This document shows positions 3,722-62,557 of a stretch of DNA of 64,000 bases, in pieces. The position numbers and the translations under genes are program-made. The DNA lies in the IMG/VR virus record IMGVR_UViG_3300032164_000001; one strand, written 5' to 3'. This DNA is from a virus. Each line of letters opens with the position of its first letter. Position 1 is the stretch's first letter. A model generated the notes under the pieces. The model did not search any database and had not been told where the DNA came from. It worked only from the letters and a program-made list of their open reading frames with translations.

Positions 3722-3795
3722 TGTTCACACCCCCCGTGTAGTGCGGATGCATCGTCCGATCTCTAACGAACCAAGCATTCCACCGATCTTTTCCA

Positions 3796-5061: not shown

Positions 5062-5076
5062 TTGTTACTCCTTTTT

Positions 5077-21875: not shown

Positions 21876-24122
21876 CTATTGCGCCGTGAAGCCGAGTTCG
21901 GCCTCAAGCGCCCTGGTGTCCTTCACAACTCTGATGACGATGAACTCGGCTGGCGAGTTCGTCGCCAATCCAACGCGGACGACAAGTTGCCCGGCGCGCA
22001 CGACGGACGGAGGATTCAGTGCTTCACTCACGTCAACGAAGAAAGCAGTTGCTGGATCGTCGGAGGCAAAAGCACCACGACGCATCCATCCATGAAGCAG
22101 TGCGTACACTTCTTTGTAGACCTGCCTACGAAGCGTTGGCGTGTTGTTTCGATGCCTGACCCACTGCAAGCCAGAGTACAGCTGGGACTCGACATAGGAG
22201 ACGCCGCGTCGTTCGCCAACACTGGGAAAGTTCCCAGTAGCCTTCAGCGTGCGAGCGCCGTCAACAAAAATCCCATATCCGCGAAGATATGAGATCGGAT
22301 TGATCCGCAGTGGAAAGATGCGATCTCGCACGCTCTCGAACTTGACCGTCTCGTTCTCTAGTCCAACCACTCCGTACGGTTTTCCACCGTCTGTGCCGGC
22401 AGGCTGATAGAATGGACCCTCTGTGAAGGATGCATCGTCTCTGGCCATAATGCCGGCGATGAAACCGGATGGCGCGACGGTGATCGTCTGCACGTTCGAG
22501 CCATAGACGACCTTGGACGGATTCGCGATGACCAGCCGTGGCCAGTACAAAGCAGCATTCTCTGTCACCCCTTCAGAGCCAAGATTGGCTTGTTGCGTTC
22601 TGACACCAGCATCGGACAAGTCGGCCTGTGGATCAAGAATAGCAAACACGAGCTTGTTGCGTACGATTTCACAGTACTGGATCATGGCCTTTTGCACGGC
22701 CATGGTGCCAATGTCTGGAATGGACAAGATGGTCAAGTCGTCTGCCGAATCAAGGGCATACATGCCAGTCTTGAGTGTTTCATCACCGATGTAATCAGTG
22801 TCCGTCAGACTCGTCAGGCCGTCGTTGCCACCGGAGAGTGACAATCCGGAGGTGTTGGCAGGAACGCGTTGCGTTGCCGTGCCAGTGGCTGATAGGTCAT
22901 CGGCTTCAAAATACCAGGAACCTGTACCGGTGGCATTCACCACCGTCTCAACATATCTGGCGGCCGTGGTGTCCATGGATACATTTGGGAAGGCCTCGAT
23001 CACATCGATGCCCCGAATCACGTTCAGATTGAATTCGGCAGCGTTGCCCGACGTGGCCGCAGTGACCTGCGCCTTCAGACTGTTGGCATAGGCACCAGGC
23101 GTCTTGCCCCACACCTTCAGTGTGCTCTGTGTCGCCGAGTCCGAGCCCGTGTGCAATGTCGTGTCAAGACCAAGAACCGTCTCAACCGTCGAGGAGCTCT
23201 TCACCTGCAGCGTCGAAGCGACGCCGGTGTCAACGGTGGAAATCTTCACGGCACCGGACACAGAGACAATGGCCACGCCGCCGCCGCTGGTCCATGCAGC
23301 CTCGACAACCGTCTCGACCTCGGAGATCGTGACGGCTTTGATGTTGGACACATTGCCGGTGCCTTGTGCCTCACTGAGTGAGAAGGCGAGGATGGCATTG
23401 GCCGAGCCGCCGGTGATTTCGACGTAGGAGCCAGTGCCACGCCGGTCGGACTCGATGCTGACCTTGGTGTGACCTGTGGCCAGCTTGGCCTTGGCCCCAT
23501 AGATCTGTGCATTGACAGCAATGACAACTTCCTCCGCCGTGGCCGCAGCTGGAACAGCGAAGTATGTATTTGGGAAGGTGAGCGTCTGCACGACGTCGCG
23601 GTCGATCTTCACTGTCAATGCTTCGTCACCGCCGGCGGAGAAGTCATACGTCTCGGCGTTGGCACAGGCCACAGATGCTGGAGTGGCGGTGAAGGTCGCT
23701 GTCTGATCAGCCAGGCCATCGACGCTGCCGACCAGTGTGTCATTGGCTGTCATCACCCATGGACCAGTCGTCATGCCCTGTACGACAGCAGGACTGGCGG
23801 AGATAGCATTTGTCGGTAAAGTCACAGAGGCCTTCACCGCCGTGGCCACGCCACCTGCATAGTGACATGTGCGAACCACGTAGCACTGCCGACCACCCTG
23901 CAGGTAGAAGGCGCGAACGGCGAGAGCCAATTCTCGCCCAGCGATCATTCCTCCAAAATTCTGCTCGTACTCCGAGTAGGACCCGAGCAATGTGGCTGTT
24001 CCTATGGCCCCGCGTTCCGCAATGCCCACGATACCATAGACAGCACTTGGCGCCGATGGAAAACCTCGGATAATCGGCTCCTCTTCAGTGATTACTATCT
24101 TCGATGAAAGCAGCTCTGGCAT
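21876..24122 (-). CDS. Contractile tail sheath protein with inserted domains
   Basis: GIVGIAERG; LSGGNDG; AALYWP; APSGFIAG; RINPI; DGARTL; VRAGQLVVRVGLATNSPAEFIVIR. Confidence 0.97.
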   Translation of the reverse strand: MPELLSSKIVITEEEPIIRGFPSAPSAVYGIVGIAERGAIGTATLLGSYSEYEQNFGGMIAGRELALAVRAFYLQGGRQCYVVRTCHYAGGVATAVKASVTLPTNAISASPAVVQGMTTGPWVMTANDTLVGSVDGLADQTATFTATPASVACANAETYDFSAGGDEALTVKIDRDVVQTLTFPNTYFAVPAAATAEEVVIAVNAQIYGAKAKLATGHTKVSIESDRRGTGSYVEITGGSANAILAFSLSEAQGTGNVSNIKAVTISEVETVVEAAWTSGGGVAIVSVSGAVKISTVDTGVASTLQVKSSSTVETVLGLDTTLHTGSDSATQSTLKVWGKTPGAYANSLKAQVTAATSGNAAEFNLNVIRGIDVIEAFPNVSMDTTAARYVETVVNATGTGSWYFEADDLSATGTATQRVPANTSGLSLSGGNDGLTSLTDTDYIGDETLKTGMYALDSADDLTILSIPDIGTMAVQKAMIQYCEIVRNKLVFAILDPQADLSDAGVRTQQANLGSEGVTENAALYWPRLVIANPSKVVYGSNVQTITVAPSGFIAGIMARDDASFTEGPFYQPAGTDGGKPYGVVGLENETVKFESVRDRIFPLRINPISYLRGYGIFVDGARTLKATGNFPSVGERRGVSYVESQLYSGLQWVRHRNNTPTLRRQVYKEVYALLHGWMRRGAFASDDPATAFFVDVSEALNPPSVVRAGQLVVRVGLATNSPAEFIVIRVVKDTRALEAELGFTAQ

Positions 24123-28748: not shown

Positions 28749-29672
28749 TTACGAACCCTTGACGTTGATCGCCTTCACCACGGCGTACGGCTCGGCCAGC
28801 TTCACGTCGAAGCGCACCGTGCAGACGATGATGACAACACCGGCCGAGATATCCTCGTCCACCTTCAGCTTGATGGTCCTGAGGATGCCAACGTAGATCC
28901 CCTCCGGGTCGCACAGCAGGCCATGCGTGTTGTTGCTGCCATCGACAGGGAACTCGGGAACGGAGTGCACTGGCATGTCGGCGTACACCGTCTTGTCCGA
29001 CATCGTGATCATTGCATCGCCGAGCGGTGTCGCCCTGTCTGCAAGGGAATCACGGTAGTCGATCCGGGCTTGCCTGTTTGTGAAGTACTGGAGGTTGCCC
29101 ATCTCTGCGAACTCGTCTGGCATCATCCGGTACATGTCACGCAGAATGGTCTTCGACAGTTTGGCACTGCCGGCGTTGACCGACCACACGTTTGTCTGCT
29201 CAAAGATGCCATTCAGCTTTGCCAGAACCGGATCCGCCGACGCGGTATTTCCGTTGACGCAGACCCATTCCATGTCACGGCCGATGGCCTTCGTGAGCTC
29301 CTGCATGAGGGTATCACGGAACACACCGCGCTCGATCTGGTCCTCGAGCACTTCGTCTGACAGCCTGACCTCGGCCTTGAACAGCTGGGCATCCAGCGTG
29401 AACATGCCAAGGGCTGGCTTCGCCCACGCCGCACTCGGCAGGGCAGTGGCTTCCTGACCGGCTCGCAGCACACGGGTGGCGAACCGCATCTTGTCTCGCT
29501 CCTCCTTGAAGTTCTTCATCGGGGTGACCGTGCAGAGCTTCAGGATGACTGGCTGCTTGATCGCGAGCTGGATGAAGGTGTCGGCTTGGTCTGGCTGCAA
29601 TACACCACCAGACGTGAAGTCCGCGACAGCGAGCTCAGCCTTCTGAAGGAGGGTCCTGTTTTCCGTCGACAT
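28749..29672 (-). CDS. Major capsid protein (HK97 fold, XkdG-like)
   Basis: GGVLQPDQADTFI; KAEVRLSDEVLEDQIE; DME..VNG; RFDVKLAE; AGGAGG RBS. Confidence 0.92.
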   Translation of the reverse strand: MSTENRTLLQKAELAVADFTSGGVLQPDQADTFIQLAIKQPVILKLCTVTPMKNFKEERDKMRFATRVLRAGQEATALPSAAWAKPALGMFTLDAQLFKAEVRLSDEVLEDQIERGVFRDTLMQELTKAIGRDMEWVCVNGNTASADPVLAKLNGIFEQTNVWSVNAGSAKLSKTILRDMYRMMPDEFAEMGNLQYFTNRQARIDYRDSLADRATPLGDAMITMSDKTVYADMPVHSVPEFPVDGSNNTHGLLCDPEGIYVGILRTIKLKVDEDISAGVVIIVCTVRFDVKLAEPYAVVKAINVKGS

Positions 29673-29738
29673 TTGCTATCCTCCTGGATTTGTTTTTTCT
29701 CGAGCTTTCTCTTTCGCCCGGGCTGACTCCCGCCTCGC

Positions 29739-31277
29739 TCAGTTCTCGCCCTTGGCGCGCTTTGTCAGCGCCTCGCGATAGGCGGGGGAGTTGTAGTTGT
29801 TTGGGAACAACAGAGAACCTGTACTGGAAGCAGGCGGCTCGCCTGCTGAAGCTGGGGCCGGAACGGTTCCACGCGCCTTCGCCACGAGAGCCTGCAGCTC
29901 TCCGATTTGCTTCTGCATGCTCTGCATCTTGGCCAGCAACTCCTCGACCGGAGGAGCCACAGGCGGATCGCCTGCTGATGGATTGACAACCGGCGGCTCG
30001 ATGACCGGCTCGATGACTGGCTTGACAATCGGCTCCGTCGGTAGAAGTTGATGCTTGTGCAACTGCTCCTCGAAGCTGCTCAGGAATTGGTCCGCGTTGA
30101 GAAGCATGCCGAGCTCACTCAGCTCCAGGTCGTCTGACTTCTTGACCTTGGGGTACTTCTCGACAAGCCCCTGAAGCAGAATCGAGATCTGCTTGAGCTC
30201 CTTCATGGCCCGAGGCTCATTGAAGTTGGCCTGTTGGGCCTTCTGCGACAGAGAAAGAGCACGCTCCGCCACCTCACGCAGCGTGACCGCGAACTTGTTC
30301 TTGGCCTTCTCGGTGTGCACGGTGAGCTTCTCGGCCAGTGCATCCACGATGGACCGGACAGCTGCGATCTCCGCTGCAATCGGCTCGGCGACGGAATCCG
30401 TCGCAGCCTCACCAGCCACCTTCGCCACGATGCCCAGCTGCTCCGCGATAGCACGGAACATGGCAGCACAAGCTGGAAGAGCCTCTTCCATGTCAACGTC
30501 GGCGGCGGATACGCCTTCCGGCAACGTCGGAGCGGTTTCACTCTTGCTGATCTTGAAGCTCTCGGCGAGAGTCTTGATCTTCCCGGCGAAGGCCTTCACG
30601 GCCTCGACGAGTGCAAGGCCAGTCAGTGATGCCATGCCAAGTGCCTCCTCGGCGACTTCACGCAGCATAGGTCCCGGGCAAGTCGTCGGTGGTTCCACGA
30701 CTGGCGGCGGAGGAGGTTGACCACCCTCGGACTTCGCAGCCGGAGCGGGAGTTTGCTGATCTGGTGCCGGTTTGCCTTGCTCGGGCGCAGGAGACGGGTA
30801 CTTCTTCATAACACCCTTCAGCAACTCGATGAGTGCTGTAGCCTCGGCGTACACCTTCTTCATGTCCACCTTGACACCCTCTTGCTCCAGTGCTTGGCAG
30901 ATCGACATGCCCTTCTCGGCCACCTCGCGAAACACGGCCGAAATGGCGGAGGCAGCCTTGTCGACGTCATTCTGGCCATCGGAATCCTGGCCGCCGTCGT
31001 TTTTGAGCTGAGAAACCAGTTCTCCGATCTGCCCCGTCAAACCCTCCAGGGCAACGGCAGCCCTCTCGAGGTCCGACGCTGTCTCAGGGTTGTGCAGATC
31101 TCCGCCGGCACCCTGGACGAGCTCCGGCTCCAGGTTCTGCGTCGTCATTGCTTCCTCCTTGAAGACGATGAATTTTCGCTTGTTAGCGGCTCTGTCTACC
31201 AAATCGACCTTGTACGGCTCGATTTCTCGTAGGCGGCGACGCTTGATTCGTTTTCCTGTGTCACTGTTGAATGCCAA
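29739..31277 (-). CDS. Scaffold-like protein carrying the XkdF N-terminal motif
   Basis: Probable TTG start at 31277 after AGGTGG (track start 31409 has no RBS); RRLREIEPYKVDLVDRAANKRKFIVFK followed by acidic helical and Pro-rich segments; directly before the capsid gene. Confidence 0.75.
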   Translation of the reverse strand: MAFNSDTGKRIKRRRLREIEPYKVDLVDRAANKRKFIVFKEEAMTTQNLEPELVQGAGGDLHNPETASDLERAAVALEGLTGQIGELVSQLKNDGGQDSDGQNDVDKAASAISAVFREVAEKGMSICQALEQEGVKVDMKKVYAEATALIELLKGVMKKYPSPAPEQGKPAPDQQTPAPAAKSEGGQPPPPPVVEPPTTCPGPMLREVAEEALGMASLTGLALVEAVKAFAGKIKTLAESFKISKSETAPTLPEGVSAADVDMEEALPACAAMFRAIAEQLGIVAKVAGEAATDSVAEPIAAEIAAVRSIVDALAEKLTVHTEKAKNKFAVTLREVAERALSLSQKAQQANFNEPRAMKELKQISILLQGLVEKYPKVKKSDDLELSELGMLLNADQFLSSFEEQLHKHQLLPTEPIVKPVIEPVIEPPVVNPSAGDPPVAPPVEELLAKMQSMQKQIGELQALVAKARGTVPAPASAGEPPASSTGSLLFPNNYNSPAYREALTKRAKGEN

Positions 31278-31310
31278 GTGCCCACCTGTGCCACTTGTTG
31301 CGCCACTGCT

Positions 31311-31340
31311 ATTCTTCAGGCACACAGAAGCAAAAGTCAA
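31311..31340 (-). promoter_or_regulatory. Possible sigma70-like promoter for scaffold and capsid genes
   Basis: TTGACT-N18-AAGAAT upstream of 31277. Confidence 0.35.
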
Positions 31341-31487
31341 GAGAGATATTTGACTATTTGCTTGCACCAATTGACACAAAGCAGATGATAAACAGTGCAG
31401 GTGTGCCACAGGTGGGCATTAGATGTGCGCTAGATGTGTGCCAAATGCGCCCGAAGATGCACCAAGTGGGCAACAAGTATTTGTAAT

Positions 31488-34400
31488 CTAAGCAGCAATG
31501 TCCAAGGCTAAAGCCGAACCCTCTATGCTCCATCCTGTCAATTTGCCTTGCTTGATTGCTTGCCACAAATCGTTGTCCAGAACCCGCGCGGCCATGAGCC
31601 AGGTTCCTTTTTTCACGAATTGAGCGTCCACCAGCATGTCGACCGGTGCGACATAGCTCTCCAACACACGAATCTTGACTGCCTCAAGTGGCCCACCTCG
31701 ATGCATGAGACCGATGTGCTGCGCTTGCTCCATGAAGTAGTAAGCAGCTTTCCGAACCGTCTCCTCATCATAGATGTCGCCCTGCGAATCGTACTCGTTC
31801 GGAACGAGCACTACGCCAAGCACGTAGCGCTCCTCGTCGGTCTTCACGATCTGCACGTGTCTCGAGCCACATGCATCCTTGGCTATCGCATCGGAAACTT
31901 CGTCTGAGGATTTCTTCAGTTCTCCACTACCTAGCAGGTCATGGACTTCCTGCAGAGTAGAAGGAGCTTGATCAGTCACATCGATAACGGATGGAGTGAA
32001 CCCACGCAGGCGCTTCTTGTCCGGATTAGATTCGTCCCAGAGGATCTCAGTGACCTCGATGCGAATCGTGTCTCCAGTCTTTACATTCAACTTTGAATTG
32101 AAACTGCGGCCCATCTTCACATACGTCTTGCCGTTCAACTCCACGGGTTCGACCCACGTCTTTGCATCCTCCTGACTGACAGGGCCCACGGCGTAGAAAA
32201 AGTTGAAGACTCCAGGCGAATCCTTCACCGGATGCGCATCCCAGACTATCCCCCTGATTTCTCGGATCATCTTCAACTTCGCCATGGAATCTGTCTCACG
32301 CAGCGTGACAGTACCCTCGGCGTACTTGAGCATTGCCCCCTCGGAACCTGGAATCTCCCGAGCCCACTTCAAAGCTGGTTCCATCTCCTCCTCGGAATGA
32401 ACCAACCTCGACTCGGTGAGCAGCAGTCGCTCGAGCTCCCTCTTTGACATGAACTCATGCAGCAGCTCGAGCCGTGTGCGCAGTGGTAGCACCACCACGT
32501 TGCCCCTTGTCGGATGGTATAAGATGTCAAAAAGTTGCACGCGGACATTGACGTCATTTGCTGCTGAAGCACCACGAAACGTGGCAAGCTCACGTCGAGG
32601 CACAGGGGCACCGGAATCGTCGACGGCCATAAACTCGCCATCCAGGATGTACGGACCAGGAATGGTCTCGAGCTCTTTCTTCAAACCGGGAAGGTGATCG
32701 AGAAAGTTGGAGATTGGCGTCTTTCGATCCCAGATGTCCTCGGAGATAGCCAACAGACGTCCTTCGCCATCTCGTTGAATCGACACACGAAATCCATTCC
32801 ATTTCGGCTGCACGTAGATGCCAGTCTTCAGCATCTCATCGGTGGCAAAGTCCGCATAGAGCCGGTCCATGTCGTTCGACCTGAACTCGTTGCTAGGCCT
32901 CGGTGCGGCCTTCATCGGCTTGTAAATGGCCAACGGCCTGAGGCGTTCTCTATCGTGTGTCTTGTCGTCACCGGGTTTGATGTCAGCCGGATCCCACACC
33001 TGTACATTGGTCAGCTTCTCTCCACCAGCCAGAGTGATCGTTGCAATCTTCTCCTCTTTATTGACAGAGCTCGCTTCCTCACTGAGCGCATGCACATGGC
33101 CTGTCGGCTTGTCATGAGGATGACCCTTGGCCGGCTGTACCTTGCCATTCACGACTGCATGCGTATGTGGCACGGCTTTGGCCGCAGCGCCGTCGCTGAT
33201 GACCGTCTCCGTTGTGTGACCATTTCCCTCACCGTCGACAATGGCCTGGTGGCTGTGCTTGTGACTTCGTCCTGCTTCACCCGTTGTACAACGCGCTGTG
33301 GACCGCTTGATTGGCTCTCCCACACCCTCACTGTGCTCCCAGATCCAGACTGTTCCCTCTCCTTCTTCGGCTCGCAGAATGATCAACCCACTGAATTCGC
33401 CTGGAAGGTTCTTGCCTTGCAGCTTGAACTTCTTGAAGGCGCGGCTGTCTTCCAGAAACTCGATGGTTCCTGTATGAAGAACACTGATCGACGACTCGGT
33501 GTCCTTCGTCGGGTTCAGATTCAATCCACCGTAGCTGGTGCCGGGCTTCACTTCGCCTTCGAGCTTCATCAGCTCTGCAGCTGCGCTCCCACTGGCCGTC
33601 TGATGCAAGGCCGTCACGCGTTGGTTCGAAGAGGGATCTTCTAGGAGCTGGAAGTCCTCGACGGACGCTCCTCGTCGAATGAAGAGATGGTAGATCTGTC
33701 TGGTCGGCGCCGCCCGGATAACCATCGCTCCCTTCCATCGTTGCCAAGAAAGAGTGAAAGGCGCACTGCCCAATGACATGCTGCTCACTGCTGTTTTCTC
33801 TTGACTCACGGGCTCAATTCGATCTAAAATACGGGAGGTTTGGGTGGGGTGAGGTTTATGTATGGGGGGTGTGGGGGGATTCCTCAGCGATATTGCAAAC
33901 TTGTCATACGCCCTTTCCACCGCCAGTAGGCTGTTCTCAGTTTCTTCTGATTTGCAGTAATCCCGGAAACTCCTTTCTTGCTCTAAGTCCAGCTTGTGAT
34001 GAGTTGCAATAGCATCGAGCGCGGTCTCGGGTTGTGGCCTGTACAGGTAGTACTTCGTGACGACGCGCTTGAACTGAGAGTCGACGAGCTTGATGTTCTC
34101 CTCGGTGAAGAAGTGCACATCGACGAGGGCATCGCGGATCTGCAGGCGCTCCTTCTCTTCTGTTGCCCGCCAGTACTGAAACTCCTTCGGCACGACGGAC
34201 TTGAGACCTGGTGGCAGGTAGGCCCAGCCCTTGGGTGGAATACGCTTCACGTTGACGGCTCGACGCTTCAAGACCGATGGCAGAAGTGACTTGGCGAACA
34301 TGGCCGTCCAGAACGGCACGCCTTCGGGCTGCTTGCGACCGGCCTCCACGTCTGGGTCCGTGGGCTTTCCCCCTTCGGAGACGAGCAATCTGAAAGTGAG

Positions 34401-37088
34401 CAAGCCGGAGAACTTGGGGTCCTTCTCGCAGAAGTACTCGTGGAAGTACGGCGTGCGCTCACCCCAGGACACTTGAGGCCTGGCCGTGATAACCATGAAC
34501 CCCTTTTCATTCCTCGTCGCACCCACGCTCCCTGGTTCAAAACCCTCTTCCACATCGAGCCACTGCTTGGGCTCCGGCGCCTTCGTTGCGGCATAGACCC
34601 GGTGTGGAGCTCGCAGGGGCTTGTTCCAGTCGGAGCCATCGATGGCGAAGGAGGAGACGATCTTCTTGGCCTCAGCGAGTGTCTCCGGCTTTGCGATCTT
34701 GCCCTTGATGGCATCCGCGGCCGTGTAGCCAATGAGGTAGCCATTCGCAGCGATCCTGATGTCCATGTGAACCGAGGCACCCCTGACGTGATGCTGCACG
34801 ACCGCCGGAAACGGTTTCTCCGTCGGTGGCAACTTCAAGAAGGGGTCCTGCTTGGCAATGAGCTCTTCGAGTTCTTCGACCAGTATCTCGGCATCACGCA
34901 TCTCGACGATCGTGTTGTAGTCCTCCCGCCTGCGCACGACCAAGTCATAGATGGGCAAATGGGCAGTGAAAGGCCCCACTCCGGCGAAGTCATCTTTCTC
35001 CAGCGCACCGCCATGGAATGACATGCGCTGGCCGATCTCCGCCGGCATCATGCGTCCGAGACGGAACTTCAGGATGTGAGCGGTTGCCTCGTCGAGCGGC
35101 CCACGAAGCAGCACATCGATGTCGTTCTTCGTCACGCCGTTGTTGGCAATGGAGCCCACGACCGAAACGACCGGACTGCGTAGCAAGAACTCTTCATGGA
35201 AGTGCGGCAGAAGCTCCTCCAGCTTCAACTCTGGCAGCTCCCCTGCGCTCCCCGGATGAATCGGGGCGTAGCGCTGACTCGGCCCGGCCTTGTAGAGCCC
35301 GGCCAGCTCCGGCGCATTCTCGATGTCAATCCCTCTCCGCTTGCATTCATCGAGGATGAACTTGAGCGCGTTCTCCACATCTTCCTTGGGCATGCTGTCC
35401 ACACTCGTGCGCCCCTCGGTGTATTCGGTCTCGAGCACCGTCTTGGCCGTGGCGTAGAGCTGCAATAGTTCCTCACTTGACAGCTGACGCAAGATGTCCG
35501 GAGTGAGCCCTCGAAAAGAGAGAAACGGCTTCTCTTCCTGCTTGCTTTGGGCGGGTTCTCGTGGTTGGCCTGCTGTCGACCCGTCTGTCGGTTCTTGTGG
35601 TTGACGTACTGTTGACTTGCTCAGAGCCTGTGGGAGCTCGATGACCGGGCCGTATCGACGGGCGGAGACGATGCGCTTCAGCTTCAGCGGCGGGTTGAAG
35701 GCCGCCACAAGCTTCATGGACATGTAGTAGATCGGAGTCTCGGTGGAGAACTCCTCACGAGAGAACTTGTCGATGCCATCTCGCATGTCATCCGGCATCT
35801 TCGAGAGATCGGCATACTCGACAGGTGCATCCAGAGTGATGACACCCCACACGTACTGGGCATCGGCCTTGGTCGGAGCCACCTCGTTGAGCAAGAACTG
35901 CCGCTGACCAGTTCGTCCTGTGCGTTGAAGTCTAGACAGCACGCCTGTAGACTGTTCCTTACGCAACCTTGCAATGTTGAAGGCTGCATCTGGCGTCTTC
36001 AGAGTGGAAAGCTTTCCCTTTGGCTGCTCGGCCTTCTCTACAAATTGAATCTCGTCCGAATGGATGAGACCACCGTCCGCGTCGTAGAGCGCATCGACGT
36101 GATGAAGGATGGCCTTGTGGAGAGTAGCCCCCTCCTGTACGAACTTGTCCTCGAGGGCCAAGAAGCCCTCGAGGCATGCAATGGCGTCCTCTGATAGCAC
36201 CAAGATGCGCGTCTCGGCTGGCAAAAACTCTCGGGCCATTCTGAGCTGCGTGATGAGCTTCTCTGCCAGGATGAAGATGTTCTCAAGCGAAGCAGCAACC
36301 GGCTTCTCGGTGAATGGCACCTCGGAGTAATCCTCGACGAGAGTCGAACCGACAACAACCACCGTGCGAAGCAGTGCGGTGTTGAGCTGCTCGGGCTCCA
36401 TGAGATGAATGGCTTGCTCGACGAAGGACGGGGCCACCTTGGCGAACGTGAGCGCCAGTGACAGCACATTGCCCAGGACCTGCAACTGCTGTTCCGTCGT
36501 AATCTCACTCCAATCAGCCTGTTTGCGCTCCGTGGCAACTGCTTGCTCCGCAACCGGATGCTTCCAGGGTTTGAGCTCGTCGAAGGCCTCGAGTTTCACC
36601 ACCGTATAGGCATACAGCCTGCGGCTGCGTGGCCACCAGCTCTTGCGCTCCTCCTCGGAGATCTTGTGCTGGTCGCTGAGCCTGCGAAACTGTGCAATGG
36701 AGATCGGCTTCGCCGCACCCAATTCCATCACGCCGTAGATGAACTGCTTGTCGCCAAAGTGCAGACGCTCCCCTGCAACATCGAGTTGCCTCGAGTGCAC
36801 GATGAGCCTCTTCTCACCACGTCGTACCGCTTCCGCATGGGGCTCGACCATGCGACGGAGTGGATCTGACTTCGCCGAACGCAGGAGCGTTGTGAGGTTC
36901 TGCAAGTTGTCGACAAGCTGCTCGAGCTCTTTCTTCGAATTCATCGTTCGATCCTCCATGGATGATCGCGGTCTGAGATGCTTTGGAGACGATGGACTCC
37001 CCGTCGATTGACGCCTGAGGATGCTTTCCAGATTGCGGGCTCCCCATTTGTCGGTGTTGGGGATCGGGGCTCGACCCGAACTGTGCAT
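31488..37088 (-). CDS. Giant multidomain protein: 2x ASCH-like, nucleotidyltransferase, LigD-type phosphoesterase(s), His-rich segment, ATP-dependent ligase, XkdF-type prohead protease
   Basis: NTase GSIANNGVTKNDID; PE VVQHHVRGASVHMDIR; ligase QPKWNGFR, ILDGEF, LFDILY, EGAMLK, AKLK; protease YVLGVVLVPNEYDSQGD...KKGTWL...LWQAIKQGKLTGWSIEG. Alternative start at 36944 (GGAGG RBS). Confidence 0.88.
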   Translation of the reverse strand: MHSSGRAPIPNTDKWGARNLESILRRQSTGSPSSPKHLRPRSSMEDRTMNSKKELEQLVDNLQNLTTLLRSAKSDPLRRMVEPHAEAVRRGEKRLIVHSRQLDVAGERLHFGDKQFIYGVMELGAAKPISIAQFRRLSDQHKISEEERKSWWPRSRRLYAYTVVKLEAFDELKPWKHPVAEQAVATERKQADWSEITTEQQLQVLGNVLSLALTFAKVAPSFVEQAIHLMEPEQLNTALLRTVVVVGSTLVEDYSEVPFTEKPVAASLENIFILAEKLITQLRMAREFLPAETRILVLSEDAIACLEGFLALEDKFVQEGATLHKAILHHVDALYDADGGLIHSDEIQFVEKAEQPKGKLSTLKTPDAAFNIARLRKEQSTGVLSRLQRTGRTGQRQFLLNEVAPTKADAQYVWGVITLDAPVEYADLSKMPDDMRDGIDKFSREEFSTETPIYYMSMKLVAAFNPPLKLKRIVSARRYGPVIELPQALSKSTVRQPQEPTDGSTAGQPREPAQSKQEEKPFLSFRGLTPDILRQLSSEELLQLYATAKTVLETEYTEGRTSVDSMPKEDVENALKFILDECKRRGIDIENAPELAGLYKAGPSQRYAPIHPGSAGELPELKLEELLPHFHEEFLLRSPVVSVVGSIANNGVTKNDIDVLLRGPLDEATAHILKFRLGRMMPAEIGQRMSFHGGALEKDDFAGVGPFTAHLPIYDLVVRRREDYNTIVEMRDAEILVEELEELIAKQDPFLKLPPTEKPFPAVVQHHVRGASVHMDIRIAANGYLIGYTAADAIKGKIAKPETLAEAKKIVSSFAIDGSDWNKPLRAPHRVYAATKAPEPKQWLDVEEGFEPGSVGATRNEKGFMVITARPQVSWGERTPYFHEYFCEKDPKFSGLLTFRLLVSEGGKPTDPDVEAGRKQPEGVPFWTAMFAKSLLPSVLKRRAVNVKRIPPKGWAYLPPGLKSVVPKEFQYWRATEEKERLQIRDALVDVHFFTEENIKLVDSQFKRVVTKYYLYRPQPETALDAIATHHKLDLEQERSFRDYCKSEETENSLLAVERAYDKFAISLRNPPTPPIHKPHPTQTSRILDRIEPVSQEKTAVSSMSLGSAPFTLSWQRWKGAMVIRAAPTRQIYHLFIRRGASVEDFQLLEDPSSNQRVTALHQTASGSAAAELMKLEGEVKPGTSYGGLNLNPTKDTESSISVLHTGTIEFLEDSRAFKKFKLQGKNLPGEFSGLIILRAEEGEGTVWIWEHSEGVGEPIKRSTARCTTGEAGRSHKHSHQAIVDGEGNGHTTETVISDGAAAKAVPHTHAVVNGKVQPAKGHPHDKPTGHVHALSEEASSVNKEEKIATITLAGGEKLTNVQVWDPADIKPGDDKTHDRERLRPLAIYKPMKAAPRPSNEFRSNDMDRLYADFATDEMLKTGIYVQPKWNGFRVSIQRDGEGRLLAISEDIWDRKTPISNFLDHLPGLKKELETIPGPYILDGEFMAVDDSGAPVPRRELATFRGASAANDVNVRVQLFDILYHPTRGNVVVLPLRTRLELLHEFMSKRELERLLLTESRLVHSEEEMEPALKWAREIPGSEGAMLKYAEGTVTLRETDSMAKLKMIREIRGIVWDAHPVKDSPGVFNFFYAVGPVSQEDAKTWVEPVELNGKTYVKMGRSFNSKLNVKTGDTIRIEVTEILWDESNPDKKRLRGFTPSVIDVTDQAPSTLQEVHDLLGSGELKKSSDEVSDAIAKDACGSRHVQIVKTDEERYVLGVVLVPNEYDSQGDIYDEETVRKAAYYFMEQAQHIGLMHRGGPLEAVKIRVLESYVAPVDMLVDAQFVKKGTWLMAARVLDNDLWQAIKQGKLTGWSIEGSALALDIAA
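33801..33870 (+). promoter_or_regulatory. Sigma70-like promoter plus G-rich element, copy 1 (antisense within the giant gene)
   Basis: TTGACT(33801)-N18-TAAAAT(33825), then a 40-mer matching 61457..61496 at 33/40 positions. Confidence 0.65.
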
Positions 37089-37557: not shown

Positions 37558-39342
37558 CTACTCCTCGTCTGCAAAGCCGCCACCGCCCAGTGGCTGCAGG
37601 GGCATACCAGCCCTGTGCATGGCGGACAGCGGGATGACTCTGTCAGAACTCACTGCAACGTCCTGCGCCGTTTCCTCTTCTGCTGGCCGTGTGACAAGCG
37701 GAATGGGCGAGGAGCCAATGCCCAGGTCGTCAGCGGTCGACCCGGTGTGTAACTGCGCAAGAACGAAGGGCAGAGGCTTATTTGTCCAGTCCTCGGAAAT
37801 CTCTTCGAAGGCTCGGTTGAAGATGTCGGCGGCGAGCTCGCGGGCCTCAACCGGAAGCAGGATTCCTGCCTTGACCATGTTGGTCACCATGTCAGACATG
37901 GCTTCCGGGTCCCGGACGATTGGAGAGTTGGACCTGAAGATCCAGAACGTGATGCCTAGATCCGGAAAGATTCTCCGGTTGACGACAGAGTCAAGCACTT
38001 CTCGCTCTGGTTCGAACACCTGCTCTTCGGCAAGCTTCATCGAGGCGTAGGCCACCGAGCGATTCAACTGCTTGTCATCCCCTCGAAGAATTCTGGGCAG
38101 GCGGAAGGACCGAGCCACCTTTTCCTCATTCCTGACATCATAGTTCTGGAAGAGGGCATCCGACTGCTGTGCATCGCGGAGTGGGACGAACATCACCCTG
38201 GGAACTTGTCGTGGGCCAGAGTCTCCGACGGAGCGCTGGCTCTCGGCCTCGAGCACCAGGATGCGATGCGTGCTTCGCTTGCCCTTGAGATGCTCGTCGA
38301 TGAACTCCTCGATTCGTGTCGTGACGCCCTTGCCCAACCGTCCGCCTGACACGAGAAGAGCGAGTGGAGGAACGACGTTGTTCTTGAAGTAGTTGTAGTT
38401 CACCTCTTCGAGCTCTCTGTTACCAAGGACTCCAGGAAGGTTGGCGATCCAGCGCGAGACACCGTAGTCCGAGGCCGGGGTGAAGATGGTGAAGTGCAGC
38501 ATCTCCGACGCTGGTAGAGCCGTCGGCTCCTCAATCCGCAAGCCCTCCGGAGAGTCATACACTTTCCCCGTGCTGCGAGAGATGATTCGGGGATCGCCCA
38601 GCTCCTTGAAGTAGACACGTCGGCCATGCCGTCCAATCTTGAAATAGCGACGGAAGTAGATCGGCACTTCGTAAGTGCGCCATGTGATGTCCGTGACACG
38701 CACCTTCTCCTTCACCAGGGTTGGCTCTTCGTCTTCCTCACAGAGGCGCACGTGCAACGGGTTCACATAGTAGATGTTGACGATCTCACTGAGGCTGTTA
38801 CGCACAACTTCCCAGAACGCGTTGCCGATGACTTCCAGGTCTTGTCTCGTCCGACGACGCAGTTCGATGAAGGAGAAGAGCGGACAGACAAAGGAAAAGA
38901 AGGCCTTGAGCCTGGAGTACTCGAGTCTCGCTGTCCGACGGAGAAGCTCGATGCGGGCATCGACCTCGACCTCCGTCGGTTCGACAACGGCCTCCAGCAC
39001 CTCGCCCTTTTCGTGCGCATCCAGCGTGCGCTCGTAGAGAATGGCATCTGCGATGCGACCACGGGCGGATTTGGACGCCAGATCAATGGTTGGCAGAAGA
39101 TGGTGGCCAAAAGACTCGATGTTGGTCACATAGGCATCAACGTTGGGCCGCAGAATCGATGACTGCTCGAACAGCTTGTAAAGTCTCTCGAAATCGTAAG
39201 GGGGTGTCAGAACACCGGCCTCTTCGTCCTTCTTCACCAGGAAATCTATAAGTTCTGTGCCCTTCCGCTCTGCCTTGCCGAGCACGGTGGCCTTAATCGC
39301 TGAAACCTTTCTGGTTTTCGCTACGCTTTTATTAGTTGCCAC
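37558..39342 (-). CDS. Portal protein (PBSX/XkdE-like)
   Basis: TPPYDFERL; DLEVIGNAFWEVVRN; EMLHF; YGVSRW; NYNYFKNNVVP; SFRLP. Probable GTG start at 39342 after AGGAG. Confidence 0.93.
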   Translation of the reverse strand: MATNKSVAKTRKVSAIKATVLGKAERKGTELIDFLVKKDEEAGVLTPPYDFERLYKLFEQSSILRPNVDAYVTNIESFGHHLLPTIDLASKSARGRIADAILYERTLDAHEKGEVLEAVVEPTEVEVDARIELLRRTARLEYSRLKAFFSFVCPLFSFIELRRRTRQDLEVIGNAFWEVVRNSLSEIVNIYYVNPLHVRLCEEDEEPTLVKEKVRVTDITWRTYEVPIYFRRYFKIGRHGRRVYFKELGDPRIISRSTGKVYDSPEGLRIEEPTALPASEMLHFTIFTPASDYGVSRWIANLPGVLGNRELEEVNYNYFKNNVVPPLALLVSGGRLGKGVTTRIEEFIDEHLKGKRSTHRILVLEAESQRSVGDSGPRQVPRVMFVPLRDAQQSDALFQNYDVRNEEKVARSFRLPRILRGDDKQLNRSVAYASMKLAEEQVFEPEREVLDSVVNRRIFPDLGITFWIFRSNSPIVRDPEAMSDMVTNMVKAGILLPVEARELAADIFNRAFEEISEDWTNKPLPFVLAQLHTGSTADDLGIGSSPIPLVTRPAEEETAQDVAVSSDRVIPLSAMHRAGMPLQPLGGGGFADEE

Positions 39343-39400
39343 CTGATGTATCTCCTGCAAGTTGATGCTACTGTGCCACCCACGTGACACGATTTGCGCC

Positions 39401-39429
39401 ATGATAGACAGTCTTTGCTGGACAGTCAA
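39401..39429 (-). promoter_or_regulatory. Sigma70-like promoter of the portal/morphogenesis operon
   Basis: TTGACT-N17-TATCAT on the minus strand, ~60 nt upstream of the portal start. Confidence 0.6.
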
Positions 39430-39506
39430 ACCCAAAATGTGGCAGCATGTGAAGCGTCAACCATTCCGCGCAAGCCAAATAGAAGTCAGCGGAGGCAATT
39501 CAAACC

Positions 39507-50115: not shown

Positions 50116-51648
50116 ATGGCAATCGACCAAGAGTGGACAAGTGTTTACCCAACCGGGTTGGATTCCAACAGCTCCATGCCGGACCTGGGAGACCACACCC
50201 ACAACACCAGGTGGAGCCAGTGGCAAGCTCTGAGAAATGCTGTTAAAGAGCTGGAAGCCCAGGTGGGCTCAGACTCGCTAGAATCTTCTTCCTTGCGTGC
50301 CAACCGAGCTACTACCACGACCGGGGTGTTCCACGTCTACGCCAACGGCTCAACTGGTAACGACTCGAACTCGGGGTTGGACGTGGACCACCCCAAGTTA
50401 ACATTACAAGCGGTCTTCAACCTGATTCCAGACATAGTCAAGCACAACACTTGTGTACACTTGGCCGGTACTTTCAACGAGTTTGGCATCGTTAACTTTG
50501 CAAAAACTCGGGAAGGCTATGCAGGTGCCTCGACTCCCATAATTCTAATAGACGGTGGAGACACCACCACTGTTGTGGATGACAATGGAGGAAACCACTA
50601 TACAACTATCGCTGGCACTTCTACATCGCAACTGGTTGTATCTGGTACTCCCTGGACAACAGACCAACGTTACGGTTACTGGATCAAAATCCTGACCGGT
50701 CCTGCTGCGGGTGAAATTCGCTCGATCTTCAAGAACGTCACTGACACAATATACCCAGCTAGATACTTCACTAGCGCTCCGGGAACTGGGGCGACTTTTG
50801 ACATCGTTAGACCCACAACTACTCTCAGTGCTTCATCTACCACTTCATACATTTTGTTGTGTAACACAACAAGACCAGCTGTTAGAATACAGAGATTATA
50901 CTGCAGTGGAAGCAAAGTTTCTTTCTATTCGCTAGGTAACCTAGACCTTTGTTTGTCCAGCTTGGTATTGAATACAACAGCTTCTTCTGCGTGGAGTGCC
51001 ACGAGCGATGTGAGTATTGCTGTCCAGGTAAATGTATACAACAACTCTTCATTTGTCTTAGACACATCGAACAAGACTGGAGTTAGTGTTCCAGGTTCAT
51101 CAACTCTGGACTTTAGTGGATGTGGGCGTGTCAATTTACCTATGCTCCTAAGTCGAAACGTTGAACTGGCTGGGTGTGGCTTCTCCAATCTATGGCAAGG
51201 TAGTCGGATACGAGGGAAACTGACATTGACTGATTGTGCCAATGGTTGCGGAGAAGGTACTCCACAGTTTCAAAACACTACTAGTCCTGGCTGCCAAGTC
51301 ACAACGGTGGGAGACTCCAGTGGTGTCGGTGTACTTTTGAAGAACACAAGAGTAACAATTCATAACATCAACATTAGCAACAACACCTCGCATGGCATTG
51401 AAGCAGTTAAGAGTCATGTAGAATTCACAGGTGCTTGTACTGGGTCTGGCAACGGGGGCGCTGGTGTCTACGCCCACAGTGGCTCCGTAGTCCACATCAA
51501 ACACGGTGCAGCCCCAACCTTGACCGGTACCGTGGGTGATCTTGCAGTGTCCAGTCCAACAGCACAAGAAAGTACTTGGGCGGCCATCGACGCTGGTACC
51601 CCAGTTGCAATTGCGGCTGAGATGACCATGGCTAAGGAAGTGGTGTAA
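50116..51648 (+). CDS. Tailspike/fibre-like beta-helix protein, paralog 1 of 3
   Basis: VYANGSTGNDSNSGL...PKLTLQAVF..IPDIVKHN; C-terminal ISNN..HGI beta-helix rungs. Confidence 0.7.
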   Translation: MAIDQEWTSVYPTGLDSNSSMPDLGDHTHNTRWSQWQALRNAVKELEAQVGSDSLESSSLRANRATTTTGVFHVYANGSTGNDSNSGLDVDHPKLTLQAVFNLIPDIVKHNTCVHLAGTFNEFGIVNFAKTREGYAGASTPIILIDGGDTTTVVDDNGGNHYTTIAGTSTSQLVVSGTPWTTDQRYGYWIKILTGPAAGEIRSIFKNVTDTIYPARYFTSAPGTGATFDIVRPTTTLSASSTTSYILLCNTTRPAVRIQRLYCSGSKVSFYSLGNLDLCLSSLVLNTTASSAWSATSDVSIAVQVNVYNNSSFVLDTSNKTGVSVPGSSTLDFSGCGRVNLPMLLSRNVELAGCGFSNLWQGSRIRGKLTLTDCANGCGEGTPQFQNTTSPGCQVTTVGDSSGVGVLLKNTRVTIHNINISNNTSHGIEAVKSHVEFTGACTGSGNGGAGVYAHSGSVVHIKHGAAPTLTGTVGDLAVSSPTAQESTWAAIDAGTPVAIAAEMTMAKEVV

Positions 51649-51653
51649 CTATC

Positions 51654-52988
51654 ATGGCAAAAATAACCGATTTCGCAACCGTAACCACCAAGACACTCCA
51701 GGTCTACGCAAATGGGTCGACTGGCAACGACTCCAACGACGGATTGACTGTTGGTACACCCAAGTTGACCTTGGGTGCTGTGTTCGCACTTGTGCCGGAC
51801 ATAGTTAAGCACAACGTCTGCGTCAACCTGGCAGGTACGCTCACAGATTGGGGTGCAATCACTTTGTCGAGAACTGCCCTCGCGTGGCTTTTTGTTGATG
51901 GCGGGACCAACACGACTACCCTTGCAGGTCCCTACACAGCCGACATTCACGAGACTTACTCTATAGGATTGACCACAGCAGGTTGGACAGCCAACGCCTA
52001 CAGGGGTTATTCGGTCAAGGTCACGTCTGGTGCATGCAATGGCGAAATAAGGACCATTCAGTCGCACACTACTACCACCATCACTCCCACCCAGAACTTC
52101 TCCACAGATCCGGGCGCAGCTACGTTTGTCATCGTTCGACCAACCACCACCCTCAGTGCCAGCTCTACTGAATCTGGGCTGACGATATCAAACTTGGGTG
52201 ACGGCGTTGGTCGGATCACTGTACAGAACATCTACCTGACAGGTTCCAAAGCACAGCTAAGTGCATACAATAGTTGTGGTGAAGTGGCATTTGCCAATGT
52301 TGTTTCCGACTCAACCAAACAACCTCCAATTGTAGCCAACTGGCTAAACCTCTTGCTGTTCTCGTCCAATGTTTACAACACGACCACCTTTCCCTTTACC
52401 CTTAACACACTGTATCACACAGGTGTAACAGTGCGAGGGAACTGGAGCACCAGTCTGACTGCTTCCGTGTACCACGTGCAAGACTTCTATGTGTACGGGG
52501 GCCTTTTGAATTGTCTGGACTGCAATAGTTGTGGTAGTGTGTTCATGACACAAGGTTGGAAGATATCCGGTATGTACTTGTGGCACAACCTGCGAGTCGC
52601 TCTAATGAGTGCTAGCGGCTTTGCAAAAGGGGAGGCTAGTGGCTGCTCCAATGCTGCAGGTTTACAAATCAGACGCAGCTTCGTCACCATTTACGACTAT
52701 GTGAACATATCCAGCAACGGTGCCCAAGGAATGGTTGTAGACTTGGGCTCGATAGTACAAATCTACACGGCTACTGCTGCCCTGAGCGGTTCTGGCAACG
52801 TGGGCTGGGGTGTGCTTTGTGACTATGACGCCACGGTGCTCTACTACAACACAATCACCCCAACTTTGACTGGAGCTAGTGGAGAGGTGTACACCGCTAC
52901 TGGGGCTGGAACAGCAACTTGGGCGCAGATTGCTGCTGGAACAATTCTGTCGGGTGCTACCTACAAGTGCTTGGTTCGCAAGTACTGA
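51654..52988 (+). CDS. Tailspike/fibre-like beta-helix protein, paralog 2 of 3
   Basis: First ~62 aa identical to 53009..54334. Confidence 0.72.
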   Translation: MAKITDFATVTTKTLQVYANGSTGNDSNDGLTVGTPKLTLGAVFALVPDIVKHNVCVNLAGTLTDWGAITLSRTALAWLFVDGGTNTTTLAGPYTADIHETYSIGLTTAGWTANAYRGYSVKVTSGACNGEIRTIQSHTTTTITPTQNFSTDPGAATFVIVRPTTTLSASSTESGLTISNLGDGVGRITVQNIYLTGSKAQLSAYNSCGEVAFANVVSDSTKQPPIVANWLNLLLFSSNVYNTTTFPFTLNTLYHTGVTVRGNWSTSLTASVYHVQDFYVYGGLLNCLDCNSCGSVFMTQGWKISGMYLWHNLRVALMSASGFAKGEASGCSNAAGLQIRRSFVTIYDYVNISSNGAQGMVVDLGSIVQIYTATAALSGSGNVGWGVLCDYDATVLYYNTITPTLTGASGEVYTATGAGTATWAQIAAGTILSGATYKCLVRKY

Positions 52989-53008
52989 CACCCACTTAGG
53001 AGAGACCA

Positions 53009-54334
53009 TTGGCAAAAATAACCGATTTCGCAACCGTAACCACCAAGACACTCCAGGTCTACGCAAATGGGTCGACTGGCAACGACTCCAACGACGGCTT
53101 GACTGTTGGTACGCCTAAGTTGACCTTGGGGGCCGTGTTCGCCTTGGTACCAGACATAGTCAAACACAACGTGTGTGTGAACCTGGCTGGTACTTTCAAT
53201 GAACCAGGTGACATCAATTTTTCCCGCATGATTCAAGACACTGGTTTCCTGTTGGTTGATGGTGGGTCCACAACCACTACCCTTGCTGGACCCTACACAG
53301 CTAACATCCATGAGACCTACTCCATTGGGCTCACCACGGCTGGTTGGACGGTAGACGCCCACAAGGGTTACACAGTTTCCGTTACGTCTGGCCCGTGCAA
53401 TGGTGAGAAGCGCACCATTCAGAGCAACACCGCCACCACCATAACACCGGTCAAGGATTTTAGTGCAGATCCCGGAGCTGCTACCTTCGTGATCGAAAGG
53501 CCGACTACCACCATCAGTGCTTCCAGTGCTGACGCGATATTGAAATTGGCGATGTACAGCAACGCGGTAACTCGGATGGCATTCAGACTACAACGCCTGT
53601 ACATGTCCGGAACCAAAGCTGCTTTGCAATATCAGGGAATGTGCAGAGCTTTCATCACCAACTTCATATCCGATTCTACTGCAGCCAGCGGCTTCTACCC
53701 GTCTTCGTTTACGGGTCTCGGCAACGTTCGACAGAACCCCGCTACTTTTGCTGATATCGCGGATACCATAGAGTATGTCGGATTCTGCAACAGGGTAGCA
53801 GCAACAAATCTCTATAGCGCCGCGTGCTATTTTTATGGTTGCTACTTTGCCGTTCTAACTGCAACCGGTTGCACTAACCTGGTGTATCTAGCTGCGGGAA
53901 CTAGAATCAATGGGGGCGCCTTTGCTTTTCAATTGACTTCTAGTCGGGCGTGGATAGCCAGTGCTGCTGGTTACGCTAAAGTCAAGATCGGTGGGGCCTC
54001 CACCTATGGTGTCTATGCAGGGGAGCAATCCTACATCTGGTTTGGAGATTATGTGGAACTGAGTAATAACTCTTACGTTGGTCTAATGCTCATCAACTCA
54101 ACAGGCTGGATAGGTGGGACTACTTCGAAGCTTGCTGGCAGTAGCAATGGTAGTTGGGGTGCTTACATCGATGTTGGTGGAAGACTGTTTTTGACCAGCG
54201 GTGCTACACCAACCTTGACTGGCACAAGTGGGGAATGCGCTATCCCAACTGGTACTGGTGCCACTTGGGTGAATATCAATGGTGGCACCGTTCTTAGCGA
54301 TGCAGCCTATGCTGCACTGGTTCGCAAGTACTAA
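53009..54334 (+). CDS. Tailspike/fibre-like beta-helix protein, paralog 3 of 3
   Basis: TTG start after AGGAG; same N-terminus and LVRKY C-terminus as paralog 2. Confidence 0.72.
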   Translation: MAKITDFATVTTKTLQVYANGSTGNDSNDGLTVGTPKLTLGAVFALVPDIVKHNVCVNLAGTFNEPGDINFSRMIQDTGFLLVDGGSTTTTLAGPYTANIHETYSIGLTTAGWTVDAHKGYTVSVTSGPCNGEKRTIQSNTATTITPVKDFSADPGAATFVIERPTTTISASSADAILKLAMYSNAVTRMAFRLQRLYMSGTKAALQYQGMCRAFITNFISDSTAASGFYPSSFTGLGNVRQNPATFADIADTIEYVGFCNRVAATNLYSAACYFYGCYFAVLTATGCTNLVYLAAGTRINGGAFAFQLTSSRAWIASAAGYAKVKIGGASTYGVYAGEQSYIWFGDYVELSNNSYVGLMLINSTGWIGGTTSKLAGSSNGSWGAYIDVGGRLFLTSGATPTLTGTSGECAIPTGTGATWVNINGGTVLSDAAYAALVRKY

Positions 54335-58900: not shown

Positions 58901-59054
58901 CGCGGCTGGCGTGCCCGACCTGCAGGGTGTCTACAAGGTGAGCAAGACCACTCCTGGTCTGGTGCGCAACCGGTCCTATTACACGGTTGTCACTGCCAAC
59001 TTGCCGGAGATCGGCACCGTCACCAGTGCCAAGGGCACATTCACGGTGGGTTGA
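55908..59054 (+). CDS. Large structural protein with three ~260-aa internal repeats
   Basis: Three copies of ATDYG.VE...SEPF.D...LYVAD.IAKRE...ADLKT.IRVK...GYKY.LTP...EDQD.NF. Confidence 0.8.
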   Translation: MPATDYGIVESDAQQVQVTSAWLIRCIPGSEESILFRSDENVAILTELEFDQQQVETYSATWLEQYHPGSVESILFRSDENVAILTELEFDQQQRSVEAVPWLDSGMATLEPSIDMAQAQGSEPFIDLVRTTPVTGAVEVGVGSPIILYVADRIAKREVPVELIAANEYTSTPTPAHGVADLKTTIRVKIGEGTWATIYSSGSAQGGWTVAAQTDLLYQGYKYTLTPPTPFPPNTPIVFGVDMEDQDRNFAHDETYGFTTAKAVSATDYGVVEVDFQQQTEYTAPWLLAQGPNAEESIFYRIDEIIDNLVESEFDQQQLEVYTAPWLENCLPGSIESTLFRIDEIIDNLVESEFDQQQQGQEVPPWVPLFDTFELITATAPVQLSEPFVDYTRTLPVSGAANVQTDSTIVLYVADKIAKRESHIELVAADIYSYTPEPARGIADLKTVIRVKYGSGAWVTIYSNGAAQSGWTVDKQVDQFYQGYKYTLTPGAAFPNLTSVLFAITMEDQDHNFACDESYGFTTVRYIPATDYGVVELDACQGTESQPWLMVCTPGSEQPIFHEITSDLLPAQFDHQQQQQEVPLWAPQFESFEVASIVAPAQGSEPFIDYTRTWPQTGTLDVQPSSSIVLYVADRIAKRETHVLLVEADEFASTPEPARGIADLKTVIRVKYGSGTWTTVYFSGSAQNGWTVDKQTDLLYKGYKYILTPPVAFPDFTQIRFGVSAEDQDRNFSYDETYNFSTTESFTYGSCSLGMEMTTVYIKTGDKEPLQAMVVDTDGIPTIGLIDVKAKIRRLSDGLYYDWTDNRFKAGVSVAKLMEALSEVSSIYFKGEYILNTVDHPMGWDTAKIANVNADDVYHVTVDQDGARTAGNLPQIGEIKAGRWVDMLNAQVSTRATPDDVETRATTVIRDFGLDHLVSVNPGIVPPAANTYIRQILDKENQILAGSNSCNVKQSFAYDPALDLITGQLWVEKNNRVNDDTISMTMSWYDEDGNFVFSAAGVPDLQGVYKVSKTTPGLVRNRSYYTVVTANLPEIGTVTSAKGTFTVG
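56001..56189 (+). repeat. Exact 69-bp direct repeat (56001-56069 and 56121-56189)
   Basis: Identical sequence at a 120-bp period, in frame. Confidence 0.95.
56807..56981 (+). repeat. Exact 55-bp direct repeat (56807-56861 and 56927-56981)
   Basis: Identical sequence at a 120-bp period, in frame. Confidence 0.95.
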
Positions 59055-61425: not shown

Positions 61426-61496
61426 TTGACAGTTCCACATTGCATAATATAGAATGACGGGTGGTTGGGGTGGGTTAAGGTTTGTATATAGGGGGT
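61426..61496 (+). promoter_or_regulatory. Sigma70-like promoter plus G-rich element, copy 2
   Basis: TTGACA(61426)-N18-TAGAAT(61450), then ACGGGTGGTTGGGGTGGGTTAAGGTTTGTATATAGGGGGT. Confidence 0.7.
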
Positions 61497-61536
61497 TGTT
61501 AAATGAATCCAAGAGCTTGCGTCAGCACTGAATCAT

Positions 61537-62401: not shown

Positions 62402-62557
62402 TCACCCATTTCTCCTGCGTTCACCCTCGGACCTGCCGGTGTCTTCTTTGCGCCGATCGTAGCACTTGCTGCAATACGGCACGAGGACCAGCTTGGTGGG
62501 ATGCACATCGAGGTAGTGCTTCGTGTTCTCCTTGCAGGTAAGGCAGTATTTGATCAC
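62402..62557 (-). CDS. Small zinc-ribbon protein (51 aa, not in the ORF track)
   Basis: GTG overlapping the thyX stop; MIKYCLTC...YCSKC. Confidence 0.6.
   Translation of the reverse strand: MIKYCLTCKENTKHYLDVHPTKLVLVPYCSKCYDRRKEDTGRSEGERRRNG

Follow-up and report, generated by a model that had tools for sequence, protein, structure and literature searches.

A head-module polyprotein with LigD-type phosphoesterase, nucleotidyltransferase, ligase and prohead protease domains: a candidate virion-loaded DNA repair kit

Gene and domain map

What are domains resembling those of bacterial end joining doing in one chain with a prohead protease, among the head genes of a tailed virus? The question is raised by a 64,000-nucleotide stretch of viral DNA (IMG/VR record IMGVR_UViG_3300032164_000001), the window to which all coordinates below refer. 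An 1866-codon open reading frame (ORF) occupies 31488..37088 on its minus strand as a single uninterrupted frame. The gene itself probably spans 31488..36944 (minus strand, 1818 aa), since a GGAGG ribosome-binding site upstream of Met49 (36944) and the database gene call, whose 1818-aa product begins at this Met, agree. Residue numbers below are those of the longest ORF.

The neighbouring portal, scaffold and capsid genes, also on the minus strand, confirmed the first-pass annotation, which had placed a single ORF between portal and scaffold/capsid genes. The operon runs from the portal protein (37558..39435; PF04860, E 2.5e-18) through a 154-aa gene, the polyprotein gene, a probable scaffold gene named from its position and without a family match (29739..31409) and the major capsid protein gene (28749..29672) to the tail genes, including a tail sheath gene at 21876-24122. 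The source virus is a contractile-tailed phage (myovirus). Its DNA is present in many sediment metagenomes, possibly from one campaign; near relatives lie in a Myxococcales bin and distant relatives in archaeal bins.

An assembly chimera, named at the outset as an outcome that would overturn the finding, or a chance read-through has a virtually nil probability. Contigs from other runs overlap the junctions (29500-34196 and 33392-35325) with zero differences, a JGI contig is a near-copy (97% identity in the first phosphoesterase domain), dozens of full-length homologues exist, and the complete order nucleotidyltransferase, two phosphoesterase units, ligase and protease recurs in 49 of the 173 proteins collected.

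Pfam detected only the ligase and the XkdF protease in the whole protein, the isolated ASCH, nucleotidyltransferase (NTase) and phosphoesterase (PE) segments gave zero Pfam matches, and phmmer with the whole protein against the PDB gave none. The remaining folds come from two AlphaFold2 models built on family alignments, one without the second PE unit (yielding PE1 and the first ASCH domain), the other yielding PE2 and the NTase. The anatomy listed in the first-pass annotation stood, except that two parts had been overlooked, a ferritin-like bundle separating the two ASCH domains and a helical domain that precedes the NTase. All the segments described next lie on the minus strand.

The N-terminal part holds the two predicted ASCH/PUA-like repeats. 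The first (aa 73-183, 36540..36872) matches ZmASCH 5guq (VIA Z 12.0) and 2dp9 (Foldseek E 5e-5); the second, divergent one (aa 353-488, 35625..36032) aligns to the first with 96% probability (hhalign, E 2.5e-9). Between them lies the four-helix ferritin-like bundle (aa 192-329, 36102..36515; Z ~11 to ferritin/Dps bundles, a common arrangement). The small helical domain that follows (aa 518-598, 35295..35537) has a conserved ED..NA...E..RRG pattern and zero Pfam family matches; it was found in 67 homologues, usually directly before the NTase.

The minimal Pol-beta-superfamily NTase (aa 600-738, 34875..35291; Atlas lead NTP_transf_2) has a middling fold match (Z 5.5 to the minimal NTases 8xeh/1no5, MNT structures), backed by near-invariant G and DxD residues. 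Behind it lies PE1, a LigD-phosphoesterase-fold barrel (aa 759-932) that carries the metal triad and, with a conserved family-specific C-terminal extension, covers 34020..34856; its model superposes on the archaeal LigD-PE 3p4h with Z 12.1 (rmsd 1.8 Å, 116 aa). The second barrel, PE2 (33321..33767), which had been called a degenerate PE-like unit, matches 3p4h even without its metal ligands (Z 14.0, rmsd 2.1 Å, 115 aa) and gave a profile match to 3p43 (E 0.001). Profile alignment to the PE domain of a genome-derived LigD (hhalign) reached 94% for PE1 and 96% for PE2, reversed controls staying at or below 0.3%. The per-segment check thus supported both the PE and the NTase folds, the latter more weakly.

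A His-rich segment with HxH motifs (33060..33281), patchy and seen in close relatives only, is a probable metal-binding insert. The ATP-dependent ligase adenylation module (32250..33053, PF01068; DNA_ligase_A_M E=2e-16 over aa 1417-1606) has motifs I (KxNGxR), III, IIIa, IV and V intact. After it comes a conserved domain with 146 homologues (31905..32249), a putative OB fold whose hhalign probabilities to single ligase OB-domain sequences were 0.2% and 17%. An XkdF-type prohead protease (Peptidase_S78_2, 31512..31850) ends the chain, with E=1e-26 and 93.6 bits against a cut-off of 24 (aa 1747-1859) and the invariant His and Ser. The claimed motifs of the NTase (35115-35156), PE (34755-34796) and ligase motif I (32781-32810) were located where expected.

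Several other elements of the window deserve mention. Antisense to the gene, the PE1-PE2 linker contains a sigma-70-like promoter (10/12 match) and, behind it, a G-rich 47-nt element (33801-33876, plus strand); a second copy of the element, differing at 14 positions, stands behind a comparable promoter at 61426-61502 (plus strand). The repeat is the notable part, because the regional promoter count is at chance level; the element was not found in the related loci compared. A flavin-dependent thymidylate synthase gene (ThyX) lies at 62554-63351 (minus strand), and a 1048-aa ORF at 55908-59054 (plus strand), without a match in a family search, contains exact repeats of 69 and 55 nt, spaced 120 nt apart, as well as longer ones of 192 nt. 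Tandem paralogous blocks at 947-6561 (minus strand) and 50116-54334 (plus strand), with periods of 2.85 kb and 1.36 kb and 70-87% identity, are probably tail-fibre or receptor-binding genes.

Active sites and likely activities

The catalytic residues of most of the predicted enzymes are conserved across the family. The G[SG]-x-DxD motif and third Asp of the NTase are kept at G in 134, D in 132, D/E in 134 and the third Asp in 109 of 135 rows. Of the ligase residues, K, E, E and K are kept in 119, 120, 116 and 121 of 125 rows, and the catalytic His and Ser of XkdF in 111/111 each. In PE1 the equivalents of His42, His48, Asp50 and Arg52 are present in 160, 159, 162 and 164 of 165 rows (~97%), and that of Gln40 is Gln in 138/165. 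Two further LigD positions are replaced. The one corresponding to His84 is Glu in the window protein (Gln in 67, Glu in 60 and His in 19 of the 165 rows), and Trp stands for Tyr88 in 161/165; His84 and Tyr88 are both essential in Pseudomonas aeruginosa LigD (PMC8656161). Because the metal triad and Arg52 are kept while His84 and Tyr88 are replaced, PE1 is probably a metal enzyme with changed specificity, and not a proven 3'-phosphatase. PE2, whose metal triad is absent from the window protein and kept in 10/126 homologues, is, judged from its residues, catalytically dead here.

How far, then, does the chain resemble LigD, of which it had been proposed to be an analogue? The shared features are the PE fold with its His/His/Asp triad and Arg, as in bacterial NHEJ LigD and archaeal stand-alone LigD-PE (3n9b, 3p4h, 3p43, 5dmp), and an ATP-dependent ligase in the same chain. 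The phage polyprotein differs in having two PE units, replacements at His84 and Tyr88, a fused prohead protease and a minimal Pol-beta NTase in place of the primase-type POL domain; a primase-type (AEP) polymerase domain was not found, all globular segments being assigned to other folds. No Ku was seen within the 64-kb window of the roughly 180-kb source contig. The analogy therefore survives in part: the PE fold, metal triad and ligase hold, and the substitutions and the repeated loss of the ligase described below do not fit it. The polyprotein shares part of LigD's way of working without being a LigD.

The ASCH-like domains and the KxNG form of ligase motif I had also raised the alternative of RNA or tRNA repair. 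In such a reading ligase, PE and NTase would mend RNA that host anticodon nucleases have cleaved. RNA binding is within the range of ASCH domains, 2H and RNase-Z-like metallo-beta-lactamase (MBL) domains occur as cargo in relatives, one of 32 scanned members has a Pfam RNA_ligase match, and LigD PE, a 3'-phosphodiesterase, acts on ribonucleotide ends (PMC3300020). Against this, the best PDB matches of the ligase profile are all DNA ligases, and the motif I Asn is shared with a proven DNA ligase, that of ASFV (PMC6344480), so KxNG is no argument for RNA. The Arg of KxDGxR is kept in 90/125 sequences, the methylase and uracil-DNA glycosylase (UDG) cargo is DNA-directed, and ASCH domains bind dsDNA too (8yfi and 9kyl, among the Foldseek matches). 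We regard RNA repair as quite improbable. The Asn varies with architecture: KxNG is found in 59/75 protease-bearing members and KxDG in 49/50 protease-less ones.

Family, ligase loss and additional cargo

A query with the NTase and PE1 retrieved 903 clusters at 50% identity, and the module is found in hundreds of viruses of bacteria and archaea, all uncultured. Among 50,697 phage records the only homologue is AJP62006 of the ANMV-1 virus, annotated 'ATP-dependent DNA ligase', which sits in the head module. It is a true homologue with NTase, ligase, PE1 and PE2, adjoining a portal-like gene; it differs from the window protein in its ligase-first order and lack of a protease, and the record carries no annotation for its NTase and PE domains. 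In the same genome (KP703175), AJP62005 (1913-3193), annotated 'MutT-like phage hydrolase', is portal-like by eye, and AJP62007 (5868-9368) is a Cys-rich repeat protein with a MuF-like motif at its end, also by eye.

In a PE1 tree (FastTree), a ligase-first clade mostly lacks XkdF and a PE-first clade almost always has it; domain order changes state once and XkdF presence six times. About 50 members lack XkdF, and those whose neighbourhoods were fetched still adjoin portal or capsid genes. The head-module position thus held in every neighbourhood fetched, with or without a fused protease, and the idea that the protease fusion is what places the module in the head cluster did not survive.

The ligase has been lost repeatedly. 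Its presence changes state 25 times among the XkdF-bearing rows of the PE1 tree, where 34 such members in scattered positions either lack it or retain its C-terminal domain alone, so that end joining is not the constant core. The term 'complete machine', applied to the module at first, consequently does not suit the family, many lineages dispensing with the ligase. A search with the ligase region among proteins shorter than 1026 aa gave six matches, most or all apparently fragments and none a clear intact form without PE1. The members that lost the ligase keep the PE1 catalytic residues (31/33, 30/33, 32/33 and 33/33) and those of the NTase (18-19/20).

Relatives carry extra inserts. A Dam-type methylase occurs in 14 of the 32 proteins scanned, and Dcm, UDG, PNK3P, SAM decarboxylase, 2H, MBL/Apyc1-like and Tad3 domains were also found. 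The Tad3 (anti-Thoeris) domain is inserted in members P0012 and P0182, in P0012 between the NTase and PE1, which suggests virion-delivered Tad3. Members P0188-P0191 hold a UDG domain alongside the ligase and XkdF, so that a single chain carries a base-excision-like set.

This variation bears on a reading in which the chain is packaged and processed but serves as a rack of counter-defence proteins rather than a repair pathway: PE1 would hydrolyse or bind a nucleotide signal or cap the genome end, the NTase would nucleotidylate a HEPN toxin or some other host protein, and the part of the ligase would be that of an optional passenger. It accommodates the altered second shell of PE1 (invariant Lys and Trp), the retention of PE1 and NTase residues through repeated ligase loss, the Tad3, Apyc1-like MBL and 2H cargo and the proximity of the NTase to MNT antitoxin structures. 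However, NTase, PE1, PE2 and ligase stay associated in both deep clades although the domain order has changed, which suggests a shared pathway, and the constancy of PE1 is partly a product of the NTase-PE1 search seed. We consider a pure counter-defence role somewhat unlikely.

Head processing and a model for the packaged chain

Whether the polyprotein is processed in the head can be asked of its linkers. HK97-type proteases cleave after Lys, Lys-specific cleavage is also seen in A511, and prohead proteases act inside procapsids. Candidate Lys cut sites, picked by eye, lie in the linkers (31844..36035, minus strand) at K352 (36035), K600 (35291), K746 (34853), K1098 (33797), K1347 (33050), K1726 (31913) and K1749 (31844). 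We scored a Lys followed by a small residue within 14 aa before each domain against three control windows each. In XkdF-bearing proteins the motif precedes PE1 in 82/109 (8-13 in control windows), the NTase in 39/86 and PE2 in 55/82 (controls for all three domains, 6-15).

In the deep XkdF-less clade the motif occurs in 17/84 and does not peak at any position. In the ligase-first group with its own, separate XkdF fusion, where a different domain lies upstream of PE1, the motif is nonetheless present (23/40, p=7e-5 versus the deep clade); as the pattern was defined after data inspection and the rows are phylogenetically related, such p-values are overstated. Capsid proteins of four XkdF-bearing phages have the motif near residue 11 (in the window, Lys11 then Ala-Glu, a candidate cut motif shared with the polyprotein linkers), whereas an XkdF-less virus has Gln there. 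One XkdF-less member with Lys linkers adjoins a separate S78 protease gene. As a single cut motif of the whole XkdF-less clade, Gln/Glu/Asp is weakly supported (Gln 18/179).

These patterns suggest that the prohead protease processes the polyprotein and frees each domain; because the linkers carry apparent prohead-protease cut sites, the enzymes are probably released within the capsid. Given the post hoc pattern and the related rows, processing is a strong inference short of proof. Packaging with processing, which is common to the incoming-DNA reading, the counter-defence rack and action confined to packaging, appears likely to us. The earlier idea that a LigD analogue is carried into heads by way of the protease accordingly gains indirect support for its capsid association, from the head-module position and the linker motif.

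We propose that the gene encodes a polyvalent protein processed in the head, with a core serving to protect or repair incoming DNA, a reading to which we assign a probability of about 0.5. In this model a single chain is made from the late head operon. It would enter the procapsid, where the prohead protease, fused here and a separate gene in some relatives, would cut after Lys in each linker, probably cutting the capsid N-terminus likewise, and release the ASCH, NTase, PE and ligase parts into the head as separate units. Ejected together with the genome, these could protect the incoming DNA ahead of all phage gene expression. PE1, as a phosphoesterase that depends on metal and has an altered specificity, would clean blocked 3' ends; the minimal NTase would attach a nucleotide either to a protein or to the end of a DNA; the ligase would seal nicks or breaks left by host nucleases or base excision; and the ASCH domains and dead PE2 might replace the DNA-binding domain absent from the short ligase. 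Relatives attach further anti-defence cargo to the same chain.

The folds, catalytic residues, head-module position and linker Lys motif argue for this incoming-DNA reading, as do the mostly DNA-directed or anti-defence cargo and the DNA ligases among the best PDB matches; head-packaged, injected enzymes and C-terminal assemblin-like peptidases provide precedent (PMC5512222, PMC9503650). Against it, PE1 lacks the His84/Tyr88 pair required by LigD catalysis (PMC8656161), characterised minimal NTases mostly modify proteins (PMC5512222), and folded domains of 130-380 aa must traverse portal and tail.

A further reading confines the enzymes to the producer cell, where, within or alongside the procapsid, they would seal nicks and heal terminase-cut ends during packaging without being ejected. 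The constant genomic position and the processing signature fit such action too, and no ejection signal was identified. The anti-defence cargo and methylases nevertheless fit arrival in a new host better (PMC5512222 on P1 DarB), and portal passage would better explain the proteolytic freeing of every domain. Action confined to the producer cell therefore seems unlikely.

Several known systems resemble the chain. It combines several biochemically disparate domains in a virion-gene context, as do the polyvalent proteins that Iyer et al. 2017 described from phages and conjugative elements (PMC5512222). Both are large multi-enzyme chains in late/head clusters with predicted proteolytic release and injection, an assemblin-like peptidase always C-terminal, and methylase, 2H and minimal Pol-beta NTase cargo. 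They differ in that the hub there is a zincin metallopeptidase and the NTases come from firmicute conjugative elements; the main text of that paper does not mention LigD or ASCH, and treats ligases only as RNA ligases unlinked to polyvalent proteins. Phage P1 DarA/DarB/DdrB and T4 Alt are likewise head-packaged enzymes, some processed, that act on arrival (PMC5512222), but their domains are unrelated and include no ligase or PE.

Nudix, ART and 2H enzymes are fused to head proteins or to a capsid-processing serine peptidase (PMC9503650, where LigD is unmentioned), and in KX456208 and related cultured Lactococcus phages the XkdF protease gene is annotated DNA methyltransferase (PHROG 1530, apparently a fusion). 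In these cases, too, the protease carries an enzyme passenger, but one passenger only; here a conserved four-part module with variable cargo is older than the fusion. Iyer et al. had already set out the general principle as a prediction (2017 and 2022). A literature search, with most subscription papers out of reach, found only the general Iyer/Aravind papers, no description of this fusion or family and no account of a ligase packaged along with end-healing domains.

Methylases, ADP-ribosyltransferases and polymerases are known to be delivered by virions. To these the present family may add, as we tentatively propose with somewhat less than even confidence, a virion-loaded DNA end-healing and sealing kit, cut by the protease and injected so that nuclease damage is mended or ends are joined ahead of expression. 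In this proposal its LigD-PE variant would have a new chemistry, the chain would double as a rack for Tad3, Apyc1-like, 2H and methylase domains, and the kit would be carried by hundreds of tailed viruses of bacteria and archaea, all uncultured. The family is nearly invisible to annotation because Pfam detects the ligase and protease alone. Its predicted cut sites define precise limits for expressed fragments and for virion proteomics, and the cultured Lactococcus phages are a convenient system in which to study cargo borne by the protease. Proteins delivered by the virion act in the sole interval when the phage expresses nothing, and the variable inserts constitute a list of candidate anti-defence proteins for that pre-expression interval.
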